Part shown: positions 46,823 to 51,435 of the stretch, in pieces | How positions within the stretch are numbered: position 1 is the stretch's first letter | Layout of the letters: each line of letters opens with the position of its first letter | NCBI GenBank assembly: GCA_020054065.1 | Contig: JAGVLX010000021.1 | Span: 17,262-81,261, forward strand | Direction of reading: 5' to 3' | DNA length: 64,000 nt | Origin: Parachlamydiales bacterium | Lineage (GTDB): Bacteria; Chlamydiota; Chlamydiia; Chlamydiales; JAEYWL01 | The notes under the pieces: generated by a model | The model's database searches: none | What the model was told of the DNA's origin: nothing | What the model saw: only the letters and a program-made list of their open reading frames with translations | Translations under genes and position numbers: made by a program

Positions 46823-47509
46823 TTAAGGCATTTTATAAGTGATTGTCTCAAAAAAAGTGATATCCTGAAGCTCTTGCCCCGACTCAGCCACATATAGCAG
46901 CCTTGTACGTACTTCATCAATACGTATTTGAATATTGTACCACTGGCCTAAACCCCGATCTGGCGCTACGGTTTTTTCGGACGTTTCAATGACCACTTCT
47001 CCGGAAAGTTTAAGCGACTCTAAATAACACCGCATAATTCTGATCGCATCTGGGGAAAGCGCACATACCCTTTGTTTATCTTTCGCATAAGCATCTTCGT
47101 AGAATTTCACTAATTGAAAAGGTTCTAAAAGTTCGGCCTCTTTTTTTACAAAAGAGTGAAATTTATTCATTTCACGATTCGCATACACCTTAAATTCCCG
47201 ATTTCTAAATCTAAAGGTGAGGCGCCTTGCTTCACATATATCCGTGCTCCCAAATTGCACTTTGACCGTGGCAAACTCCACCAACGAGCACTCTTCGGGA
47301 ATGATCTTGGTAAGCATAGGAAAAAGGGAGGGTAATTCTAAAAGTAAATAAGACTGAGCAAGCGAAATCTTTTCGCTTACCGCATCGAGTTCCTTACCAC
47401 TGCCAAATAATCTTGTGAAAAGAGGAAATCCCTTTTTCTCAAGCTCGTCAATTGCAGGTAAATGTCGAATGGTTATTCCCTGAAACGATACAGAAGAGTC
47501 AATAAACAA
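46823..47509 (-). CDS. Hypothetical protein (228 aa), first gene of the inserted block
   Basis: Clean frame with TTG start and an adjacent AGGAG (poor spacing, so the start is uncertain). No motif recognised. Confidence 0.45.
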   Translation of the reverse strand: MFIDSSVSFQGITIRHLPAIDELEKKGFPLFTRLFGSGKELDAVSEKISLAQSYLLLELPSLFPMLTKIIPEECSLVEFATVKVQFGSTDICEARRLTFRFRNREFKVYANREMNKFHSFVKKEAELLEPFQLVKFYEDAYAKDKQRVCALSPDAIRIMRCYLESLKLSGEVVIETSEKTVAPDRGLGQWYNIQIRIDEVRTRLLYVAESGQELQDITFFETITYKMP

Positions 47510-47548
47510 CTCCTGTTATAGAAACTTATCTTTGAGCTTATCTAAACA

Positions 47549-49828: not shown

Positions 49829-49941
49829 AAACCACCTAATATTTGTTAAAAACCTTACTTATATTATACAAAATTAAAATAATCATTATAAAGCAAAAAT
49901 TAATAATTAATTCTTTAAATATTGATACTTAGAGGGAAGGA

Positions 49942-51435
49942 TTAAGTTTCTATCTGAAGGGAAGGACGGTCTTTAAGATGTTGGGCCACGCTATCTTCGG
50001 AGATAAAGCACCCTTTGAGGTTAAGATGCTTAAGTCCGCCTAGATTTTGGATGATTTGGTTCAGAGCGTCCTCGGTAATCCCCCCGCAATAAGAAACATC
50101 CAATTCTTGAAGGCTTGGGCAATTGAGAGCTAAGTCAATAAACCCCTGTTCGCCGATCATGCGGCATGAAGAAAGGTTTAATTCTTTCATTCCCCGGCAC
50201 CGCTTACCGATTTGATTCATGTGTTTGGAGGTAATTTTTGTACATCCGGCTAGGCTTAAGGAAGATAATCCGGGACAGCTGGTCAGCAGTAGATCAAGTT
50301 CATCATCCCCGAAATTGCGCGATTCGTTGAGATCGATCCCGCTTAACCGCTGCGCATGGGTCAAGGCTCCCCAGCTGCGGTAAGTGAGCTGGGCATTTTC
50401 AGCGAGGATTAATCGAGATATTTGCGGACACCGCTCAATGATTTTAATCAACGCATCATCATTTAGCCAATAGCAGGCGGTGAGATCGAGCTCTGCCACT
50501 TCGGGCAAACTATCCAATAACTCCGGATTAATATTGGGAGATTGAGAGAGGTTCAATCCAATCAAACGGGTAAAGCGGCGCAAAAATAAAACGAGTTCGC
50601 TCTTTTCGACTGTCGATCCATGGCAAGTCACATGAGTAATGAATTTGACGATCCGCCCTAAAATATCCCATCCTTCTTCATTCACAGAAAATAGCTCTAC
50701 AGATAGTTGTGAAGGCTTATCGGCGATGAATTTGACTCCTAAATTTTGATGGCTAAGAAATTCACAACATCCTTGTTTCAAGGTTTCTAAACCTTCTTTA
50801 ACAGCGATTTGCAAGATTTCCAATACATTTTCACGATCCAAGTATCGTTTATACACCCAACCTGTGTAGTTGGTTAGGGCCGCGATATCTAATTCAGAGC
50901 TTTTTCGCAACAGCGTCAAGACTTCAGAGGCTTCCGATTTCCATAACAGTTCAATCGTTCCGGTATAAAGGAACTCTTTGATCATTTGAAATAGGGGGTG
51001 ATTGAGCCCTTGCAAAGGGATTTGTTCGGCTTTATTTTCGACCGCTTCCCGTTGGATCAAGTCGCGGAAAAATTGTGTGCTGGATCCAAACAACAAGCTA
51101 TTGGCGGGTTCTACAATGCCGTCAATTTTAAAACGGATATCCTCAGTGATCAAAGGCTGCATGGACAAGGGGTGTTGCTGAACAGCGGCTGCAGCTCGCC
51201 GCGCAATTTCTAAAGGCAAGCGCCCCTCCAAAAACTCTTTAGTCATCCAGTCGAAGATCTTTTTTAGGTAGGGCCCGCCAAATTCATGCGTCCAAGTTTC
51301 ATCCTCACAACACGCTTCAAAGAACATCAGCATATCTTCAAGGGAATGTTTCTGGAGCTCGGTTAACACTTCTTCCGGTGTTTGCAACTCATTGCAATAA
51401 TCGAGTTGAACCGGAAAAAAAAGAGGCGTGCGCAT
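49942..51435 (-). CDS. Eukaryote-like BTB/POZ + cysteine-containing LRR (FBXL/AMN1-type) protein (497 aa)
   Basis: BTB pattern EDIRFKIDGIVEPANSLLFGSSTQFFRDLI...LFQMIKEFLYTGTIEL...LLRKSSELDIAAL. About seven 25-26-aa LRRs follow (L.LS.C..ITD.GL..L...CP.L). The N-terminus TPEEVLTELQKHSLEDMLMFFEACCEDETW is weakly F-box-like. Confidence 0.75.
   Translation of the reverse strand: MRTPLFFPVQLDYCNELQTPEEVLTELQKHSLEDMLMFFEACCEDETWTHEFGGPYLKKIFDWMTKEFLEGRLPLEIARRAAAAVQQHPLSMQPLITEDIRFKIDGIVEPANSLLFGSSTQFFRDLIQREAVENKAEQIPLQGLNHPLFQMIKEFLYTGTIELLWKSEASEVLTLLRKSSELDIAALTNYTGWVYKRYLDRENVLEILQIAVKEGLETLKQGCCEFLSHQNLGVKFIADKPSQLSVELFSVNEEGWDILGRIVKFITHVTCHGSTVEKSELVLFLRRFTRLIGLNLSQSPNINPELLDSLPEVAELDLTACYWLNDDALIKIIERCPQISRLILAENAQLTYRSWGALTHAQRLSGIDLNESRNFGDDELDLLLTSCPGLSSLSLAGCTKITSKHMNQIGKRCRGMKELNLSSCRMIGEQGFIDLALNCPSLQELDVSYCGGITEDALNQIIQNLGGLKHLNLKGCFISEDSVAQHLKDRPSLQIET

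Follow-up and report, generated by a model that had tools for sequence, protein, structure and literature searches.

A variable slot between ribF and ychF beside the type III secretion genes of a Parachlamydiales bacterium

The stretch between ribF and ychF

We analyzed 64,000 nt of DNA from a Parachlamydiales bacterium (contig JAGVLX010000021.1), a stretch referred to here as the window, in which genes were called via an open reading frame (ORF) map together with domain scans (Pfam, NCBIfam). Our analysis concerns three genes that lie on the minus strand between ribF and ychF: orf228 (46823–47509), which has a TTG start and matches no family, a gene for a 759-aa protein with a RasGEF domain (47549–49828, PF00617) and a gene for a 497-aa protein that combines BTB with leucine-rich repeats (BTB+LRR; 49942–51435, PF00651 and several LRR families). 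A preliminary description of this DNA had presented them as extra genes inserted into conserved synteny beside the type III secretion system (T3SS), and both their content and their coordinates were verified.

The presence of the three genes in relatives is nested by depth. A contig of a sister strain in Logan (L081, 19,098 nt) holds the whole block, with gene content and order unchanged from scc1 to rpsA, and the block is thus older than the split of the two strains. The closest relative that was found (L085) has RasGEF and BTB+LRR, and 12 distant genomes, together with a thirteenth in which the gene is split, have BTB+LRR alone. Comparison of the window with the sister strain yielded 12 synonymous and 4 nonsynonymous differences for orf228 (dN/dS 0.09; neutral P = 9e-6), 57 and 28 for RasGEF (dN/dS 0.13; neutral P = 7e-19) and 41 and 5 for BTB+LRR (dN/dS 0.03; neutral P = 4e-22). 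All three genes are therefore kept by purifying selection, and for orf228 it is this selection that marks it as a real gene.

To the left of the block, truB (45535–46242) and ribF (46220–46780; 186 aa, with the FAD-synthetase domain only) lie on the plus strand. To its right, the minus strand carries the gene of a THUMP/RlmL-like RNA methyltransferase (51568–52743) and ychF (52875–53969), the latter identified by NCBIfam/Pfam and by the tblastn map of loci. The block does adjoin type III secretion export genes, as had been stated, since ychF is followed on the plus strand by cdsU (sctU), cdsV (sctV) and copN (sctW), which form the export-apparatus and gatekeeper operon (54289–58763); scc1 and malQ come after these, also on the plus strand.

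The preliminary description favored a single insertion of foreign and perhaps amoebal genes. That the three genes arrived jointly in this way, as a recent genomic island within the conserved ribF-ychF-T3SS synteny, is in our view very improbable. The eukaryotic-type domains of the encoded proteins speak for such an event, as do the absence of the genes from chlamydial lineages with a collinear gene order, the truncation of ribF exactly at the left border beside a half hairpin, and a GC content at third codon positions (GC3) that is somewhat low in RasGEF (0.362) and orf228 (0.380). However, both values lie only about 1.1–1.3 standard deviations (sd) under the window mean of 0.472 (sd 0.085), within the range of the window genes, and BTB+LRR is of native composition (0.476). 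Codon z-scores were +1.43 for BTB+LRR, −0.18 for RasGEF and −2.46 for orf228. The GC and codon analysis thus gave no clear sign of a foreign composition, and the three different phyletic depths of the genes argue against their having arrived as one unit. Neither a mobility gene nor a tRNA nor flanking direct repeats were found, which also speaks against an island: domain scans of 45.5–58.8 kb revealed no integrase, recombinase or transposase domain, and no tRNA gene or Rfam family was detected in the whole window, in agreement with the preliminary description.

The block had also been described as bounded by word repeats. Both elements are real, but they are dispersed, terminator-like hairpins and not island boundaries. 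The element at 51457–51540, downstream of the THUMP gene and upstream of BTB+LRR, is a long hairpin (about −59 kcal/mol) of 9-nt words, with 3.7 copies of CAGGACACA and 2.8 copies of the complement GTCCTGTGT, and it is kept in the sister strain except for a 1-nt indel. The element at 46786–46813, between the convergent ribF and orf228, consists of a left half-arm only (ACAGGAC-type), without a complementary arm and with a fold energy of −1.5 kcal/mol; it differs from the sister strain by a 2-nt indel. The same hairpin family is found at 18832–18880 and 59250–59335, with a related hairpin at 63029–63075, and every copy in the window is located at the 3' end of a gene, so the hairpins are not specific markers of the block. 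We considered the flanking repeats as island termini or attachment sites, and this was ruled out by the occurrence of the same hairpins at three other gene ends. The family, with its tandem, intergenic 9-nt words (such as CAGGACACA/GTCCTGTGT or TTTTGGTCG), has no match in Rfam and looks like unusually long terminators or a REP-like element.

The ribF gene of the window ends in ...KLLGH*, exactly at the LLGRPYS linker where the riboflavin-kinase domain starts in seven orthologs of 304–317 aa. No remnant of this domain was detected anywhere in the window, including under orf228 (tblastn, E ≤ 10). The half hairpin follows directly, and the truncated gene and the half hairpin may both be scars of rearrangement. 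Nonetheless, ribF is short, degenerate or absent also in relatives that lack an insertion and, as the kinase domain has thus been eroded in such lineages too, the insertion is unproven as the cause of the truncation. Among the relatives (L004, L015, L017, L019, L028, L033, L048, L085 and loci of collinear order), ribF is encountered at full length (304–317 aa), with a degenerate C-terminal domain (248–269 aa), as the FAD synthetase only (164–199 aa), or without any detectable homolog. These varied states point to repeated erosion of flavin-kinase capacity.

The comparison of the window (40121–59264) with the sister strain further revealed a mosaic of synonymous divergence (dS). Values are 0.02 for nusA, 0.05 for infB and 0.07–0.14 from truB to the THUMP gene, and jump to 0.29–0.37 for ychF, cdsU, cdsV and copN, with the break falling in the indel-rich spacer between the THUMP gene and ychF (52744–52874). 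A diverged T3SS segment may have been imported by homologous recombination, unless the assembly is chimeric. The divergent ychF/cdsU promoter spacer contains a perfect 43-bp tandem duplication (2.0 copies, 54110–54195), of which the sister strain has a single copy.

BTB+LRR and gene order across Chlamydiae

A CdsU-anchored scan that considered one genome per species yielded 80 chlamydial loci (L001–L080; best CdsU match, 64% identity), the architecture of which was mapped by tblastn. Anoxychlamydiales, Rhabdochlamydiaceae and other lineages have all genes on a single strand in a collinear order: rpsA-nusA-infB-rbfA-truB-ribF-ychF-cdsU-cdsV-copN-scc1-malQ. The preliminary description gives the same order for C. 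trachomatis. Among the 80 loci, the lineages of collinear order contained none of orf228, RasGEF and BTB+LRR, and this synteny check agrees with the earlier view of them as extra genes, two of them with eukaryote-type domains (RasGEF, and BTB with FBXL-type LRRs). The preliminary description had named two outcomes that would speak against its insertion claim. Of these, occurrence of the genes at this locus in all families of Chlamydiae was not what we observed, and a lack of any compositional or phylogenetic signal of foreign origin largely was.

The gene ychF is found in inverted orientation in 39 loci, which carry labels such as Parachlamydiaceae, Waddliaceae and Protochlamydia. The THUMP gene directly adjoins it in 25 of the 39, and two further loci (L050 and L066) present an uninverted ychF-THUMP-cdsU order with the THUMP-ychF pair in the opposite orientation. 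The window order therefore looks like an inverted ychF-THUMP pair. The THUMP methyltransferase, which had been left undecided between core and island, is a core gene linked to ychF (27 related loci) and no part of any insertion, so that the core alternative stands and the island alternative falls.

In the BTB+LRR protein, the BTB domain (PF00651) covers aa 99–188 (nt 50872–51141; 29 bits against a cutoff of 20.5) and is followed by a weak BACK-like stretch, for which the BACK/3-box match is below threshold (E = 0.0026). Pfam LRR matches are found at aa 309–455 (LRR_At5g56370, E = 2e-9; also LRR_6 and LRR_4), within cysteine-containing LRRs of the FBXL type that span aa ~309–491 (nt 49963–50511). 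Against the PDB, the LRR part matches FBXL2 (1.6e-41), as well as FBXL17 and SKP2, and the BTB part matches KLHL22 and KBTBD2. The N-terminal region (aa 1–95, window 51139–51435) has no match to a Pfam family and is conserved among orthologs, with invariant M1, P4, L27, F38 and W48 and a motif FFE..EDETW; it may serve in secretion or in the binding of a chaperone, or represent a new domain.

A full-length, collinear ortholog of ~495 aa, on the same strand and beside the THUMP gene or ychF, is present in the 12 distant Parachlamydiaceae/Waddliaceae-like genomes (25–32% identity; phmmer E 1e-56 to 1e-79). The copy in the thirteenth, L019, is split into two ORFs (4359–5964), and a small remnant is found in L007 (3068–3582); either occasional pseudogenisation or assembly frameshifts could account for these two. 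Seven loci contain ribF together with an inverted ychF, and in every one of them BTB+LRR lies between the two. Pairwise distances of BTB+LRR track those of YchF+CdsU+CdsV (Mantel r = 0.61, p = 2e-4) and are ~2.5 times larger. Given the shared site, the core-tracking distances and the native GC3, BTB+LRR reflects vertical descent with fast divergence and not recent insertion, and the recent joint arrival considered above is thus largely refuted for this gene.

RasGEF, orf228 and the L085 locus

The RasGEF domain covers aa 511–670 of its protein (nt 47819–48298), with E = 1.9e-18 and 67.4 bits against a gathering score of 23.1. The N-terminal third (aa 1–330, nt 48839–49828) is K/E-rich and probably disordered. 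Matches of the protein in the PDB are RalGPS1 (1e-5) and Cdc25 (5e-4). Pfam RasGEF_N (REM) yielded no match in the protein; a REM-like motif, NRVLDFVEMW, is common to it and its relatives. When a family profile of eight sequences was compared with solved structures, E-values reached 2e-33 for Cdc25, 1e-32 for RalGPS1 and 2e-29 for RasGRF1, and profile positions 414–776 aligned with the REM+Cdc25 region of SOS1 (1bkd_S, chain residues 59–453; E = 1.5e-22). A sigma-70-like promoter match (TTTATA-18-TATAAT, 49863–49892, minus strand) lies in the 113-nt spacer upstream of the gene; it is a consensus match only, and such matches are no more frequent in this region than in shuffled sequence.

Word-indexed searches with the full protein and with its C-terminal 429 aa returned the query itself or nothing, and the K/E-rich N-terminus probably swamped the candidate list of the full-length search. 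When the C-terminal part alone (429 aa) was compared by HMMER with 1.84 billion representatives, 94 matches were obtained at E ≤ 1e-3, of which the best non-self match had E = 8e-10 and 25% identity. No close eukaryotic homolog is thus found, which is a further point against a recent island, and no donor is detectable for the amoebal origin that had been proposed. The better relatives are metagenomic proteins and one protein from an archaeal metagenome-assembled genome (MAG). Their architecture matches that of the window protein and includes a long low-complexity N-terminus, a REM-like L.F..W and the Cdc25 motifs FFxxVA..GD..A..I and IPyiG..DLTF..DGNP. The contigs of four relatives were read and have bacterial-type gene content; other family members are found in unrelated contexts, some of them beside OTU, kinase and PP2C genes. 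A metagenome scan with one of the relatives alone (P0107) recovered its own contigs, again an unrelated bacterial context. Within L001–L080, no gene of the RasGEF family was detectable, and no description of a chlamydial RasGEF-domain protein was found in the literature that we searched.

L085 was reached via its RasGEF protein (P0046). Its identity to the window is 95% for RpsA, 89% for CdsV, 86% for NusA, 74% for CdsU and for YchF and 64% for the THUMP protein, and falls in the faster genes to 47% for BTB+LRR, 37% for CopN and 24% for RasGEF. The L085 order is ribF (with a degenerate C-terminal domain), a remnant of the IS4 family, RasGEF, dCMP deaminase, BTB+LRR, THUMP, BON, ychF and cdsU-cdsV-copN, so that RasGEF occupies the same slot in the same orientation in a second lineage. 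No homolog of orf228 was detectable there. The decayed IS4-type element (about 12490–14010) lies exactly at the ribF/RasGEF junction and comprises two ORFs in different frames, one with Tnp_DNA_bind and one with DDE_Tnp_1, as well as ~185-bp inverted ends of 78% identity; its transposase, used as a tblastn query, had no match in the window.

The RasGEF gene of L085 is a probable ortholog of that of the window. The family tree has a star-like shape, and although P0046 finds the window protein as its best match after itself, the converse does not hold, so that this orthology rests mainly on synteny. It is therefore possible that the two genes are separate members of a mobile bacterial effector family, captured independently at the same permissive slot, for example through insertion sequences (IS). 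The window copy indeed scores better against P0015, P0017, P0019 and others, from unrelated contexts, than against the L085 copy; the slot is prone to insertion; an IS4-type remnant with inverted ends stands directly beside the L085 gene; and the neighbors of RasGEF differ, being orf228 in the window and the transposase remnant and dCMP deaminase in L085. We nonetheless consider independent captures unlikely. Position and orientation between ribF and BTB+LRR are the same in two genomes of one lineage, the L085 protein finds the window protein as its best non-self match, in both proteins the REM-like and Cdc25 regions come after a long, disordered N-terminus, and 24% identity fits the gradient of rates along the locus (CdsV, YchF, THUMP, BTB+LRR and CopN). 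An occurrence at the same site with so low an identity also stands against recent insertion, as does the evidence from BTB+LRR. The GC3 of RasGEF is the lowest of the locus in L085 (0.23) and among the lowest in the window stretch, and the gene is AT-biased in both lineages. This bias may stem from weak codon selection, the gene being a fast-evolving one, or, as a point against the history proposed below, may be a foreign signature that has lingered; in either case it would not indicate a recent transfer.

The gene orf228 follows RasGEF on the minus strand, 39 nt further downstream, and is probably co-transcribed with it. Its true start may be the ATG at 47317 (Met65). No Pfam or NCBIfam match was obtained even at E ≤ 10, and a word-indexed search returned no homolog except the protein itself, which has been seen only here and in the sister strain. 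One may guess at a partner or chaperone of the RasGEF protein. A type III secretion (T3S) chaperone would be expected to be strongly acidic, whereas the isoelectric point of orf228 is not (pI 5.9–6.6), and no CesT-type match was found.

Variable slots, proposed history and known systems

Inserts of more than 1 kb were counted at the conserved junctions of related loci. Such inserts occur at ribF/ychF in 8 of 20 loci, at ychF/cdsU in 16 of 64 and at scc1/malQ in 8 of 40, compared with 0–5% at the other eight conserved junctions. Two kinds of genes are mixed in the slots. Some are housekeeping genes (DEAD helicase, RNase H, Tag glycosylase, Na/H exchanger); others are effector-like and encode a C58 peptidase resembling YopT, an LRR protein, a protein that joins PPR to SET, a glycosyltransferase resembling TcdB, a kinase of eukaryotic type and large proteins of unknown kind. 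Beside ychF itself, L029 (6422–9685), L056 (7396–9474), L041 (8360–9703) and L048 (6831–8381) encode a 1087-aa protein with PPR repeats and SET, a glycosyltransferase similar to TcdA/TcdB, a protein kinase of eukaryotic type and a C58 peptidase similar to YopT. ORFs of 702 and 716 aa in the equivalent slot of L048 and L019 were considered as diverged RasGEF or orf228 and were rejected, as phmmer (E ≤ 10), Pfam and the family HMM were all negative.

Elsewhere in the window, a giant ORF of 2335 aa (25261–32268) matches no Pfam family and has the most atypical codon usage of the window (z = −4.2), and proteins of unknown type, of 653 aa (33675–35636) and 474 aa (37441–38865), are encoded upstream of rpsA. 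The first 10,000 nt (1–10000), with a GC3 of 0.30–0.41 compared with about 0.5 elsewhere, deviate more than the ribF-ychF block does, and encode two paralogous Zn-dependent alcohol dehydrogenases and a DAO+Rieske oxidoreductase.

We think it fairly probable that the ribF-ychF stretch has long been a variable slot, located at the boundary of operons and next to the T3SS export operon; it would have been filled stepwise, and its likely products are secreted effectors. In such a history, the ychF-THUMP pair would first have been inverted relative to a ribF-ychF-(THUMP)-cdsU order in the ancestor of a large Parachlamydiaceae/Waddliaceae-like group. BTB+LRR would then have become fixed at the left junction of the inversion and been inherited vertically from there on, with a divergence ~2.5 times faster than that of core genes. 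The RasGEF gene (REM and Cdc25-homology) would have come next, entering between ribF and BTB+LRR before the window genome and L085 diverged, and orf228 would be the youngest component, confined to this species-level lineage. The slot was probably remodelled by insertion-sequence activity and homologous recombination. What appears as an island in comparison with Chlamydia trachomatis would thus be an old, stepwise architecture, the parts of which differ in age and are all under purifying selection.

This stepwise history and its presumed products have some weaknesses that need to be considered. The order of events around the inversion is inferred from few loci, with no rooted species tree, and the family labels of the MAGs are taken from record titles and may be unreliable. 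Single-sequence AlphaFold2 gave an unusable model for orf228 (pLDDT 32) and no structural support for the C-terminal part of the RasGEF protein (pLDDT 44). In addition, the alpha-H hairpin motif of the window RasGEF copy reads IPQMDKLAGDLQVAKEMAR where relatives have IPyiG..DLTF..DGNP. Compared with the conserved form IPxxGxxLxDLxFxx[DE]GNP, the window protein retains the Glu, has Gln in place of the Leu and lacks GNP, while the relatives P0019, P0022 and P0025 retain the motif and the L085 copy retains DGNP. By SOS1 numbering, in which we take the motif positions to be T935, L938, E942 and N944, the retained Glu would presumably correspond to E942 and the lost Leu to L938. Given this degeneration, exchange activity may be altered or lost, and the catalytic competence of the window protein is uncertain.

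Judging by their domains and by the literature on related families, the BTB+LRR and RasGEF proteins are most likely secreted, host-manipulating effectors. The former could act as a secreted mimic of a host Cullin-3 substrate adaptor, in which BTB would bind Cul3 and the FBXL-type LRRs would recruit a target for ubiquitination. The latter could be a secreted activator of host Ras/Rap-family GTPases, with the long disordered N-terminus carrying the secretion signal. Both Cullins and Ras-family GTPases are eukaryotic. One may instead suppose that the proteins act within the bacterium or are decaying relics, with the proximity to the T3SS being a coincidence. The degenerate alpha-H motif would fit a relic, and the slots, as operon boundaries, are open to any gene, as the housekeeping genes found in them elsewhere illustrate. 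Decay, however, is excluded by the strong purifying selection, and we know of no bacterial substrates for BTB, FBXL-type LRR or Cdc25-homology domains, which counts against a role inside the bacterium. Moreover, a family of chlamydial BTB+LRR proteins has been described (Domman et al. 2014, PMC4209131), and a heterologous T3S assay pointed to effector function for chlamydial families related to ubiquitination, BTB+LRR included (PMC4209131). A non-effector role is thus, in our judgement, highly improbable.

It is well established that environmental chlamydiae possess eukaryote-like effectors, and the presence of such genes is therefore unsurprising. A BTB+LRR gene that is syntenic and in single copy, unlike large paralog arrays, nevertheless offers a tractable and comparable candidate for Cul3 hijacking. 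In amoebae, Ras/Rap signalling controls macropinocytosis and phagocytosis, and a chlamydial RasGEF-domain family suggests that host Ras/Rap signalling is manipulated. The quantified slots, with insertions that cluster at three junctions and are often effector-like, could guide effector discovery in MAGs. More speculatively, the flanks of ychF may form a long-lived 'effector cradle' throughout the phylum in environmental chlamydiae, with BTB+LRR as the ancestral founder of the Protochlamydia expansions, RasGEF as the first, fast-evolving Cdc25-type Ras/Rap exchange-factor effector of Chlamydiae, and a site beside the export genes that reflects co-regulation with T3SS assembly; we regard this extension as tentative and as rather doubtful.

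Among known systems, the PEX1 family of Protochlamydia, with BTB-box and LRR (PMC4209131), is a close parallel to the BTB+LRR protein. It likewise combines an N-terminal BTB with C-terminal LRRs, occurs in environmental, amoeba-associated chlamydiae, evolves fast and is presumed to comprise T3S effectors that hijack host ubiquitination. Whereas PEX1 forms a tandem birth-and-death array, however, the gene studied here is a single copy at a fixed syntenic site beside THUMP-ychF and the T3SS operon in many lineages, and its protein has the conserved N-terminal region of ~95 aa without a Pfam family. Relatedness to PEX1 members was judged in that work by a minimum of 30% identity across 60% or more of the length (PMC4209131); L003, a MAG that bears the label Protochlamydia, has a syntenic ortholog with 26% identity along its full length. 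With the adaptors of Cullin-RING ligases, the resemblance lies in the BTB domain for KLHL22 and KBTBD2 and in the LRRs for FBXL2, FBXL17 and SKP2, but the window protein is bacterial and chimeric, in that a BTB of the Cul3 type is joined to an FBXL LRR of the SCF type and both F-box and Kelch repeats are absent.

The RasGEF protein shares the Cdc25 domain, as identified by Pfam, with the eukaryotic Cdc25-homology RasGEFs (SOS1, RasGRF1, yeast Cdc25, RalGPS1, RasGRP and Epac), and the family profile spans both REM and Cdc25 of SOS1. It differs from them in its ~25–30% identity, in having the 330-aa K/E-rich N-terminus in place of DH/PH, C1, EF-hand or cNMP domains, and in the degeneration of the alpha-H hairpin motif in the window copy. 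In Legionella, the list of secreted effectors includes RasGEF-domain proteins (PathFams, PMC8442362) and, together with RalF (Sec7), these likewise represent GEF domains of eukaryotic type in an amoeba-associated intracellular bacterium. Legionella belongs to another phylum and uses the Dot/Icm type IV secretion system where a T3SS is found here, and the likeness is drawn at the level of the domain type.

Finally, the locus resembles classical genomic or pathogenicity islands in that accessory genes of host-interaction type, absent from some relatives, lie beside a secretion system. It differs from them in having no integrase, tRNA, direct repeats or clear compositional deviation, and in having components of different age, and it behaves more as a plasticity zone at an operon boundary.

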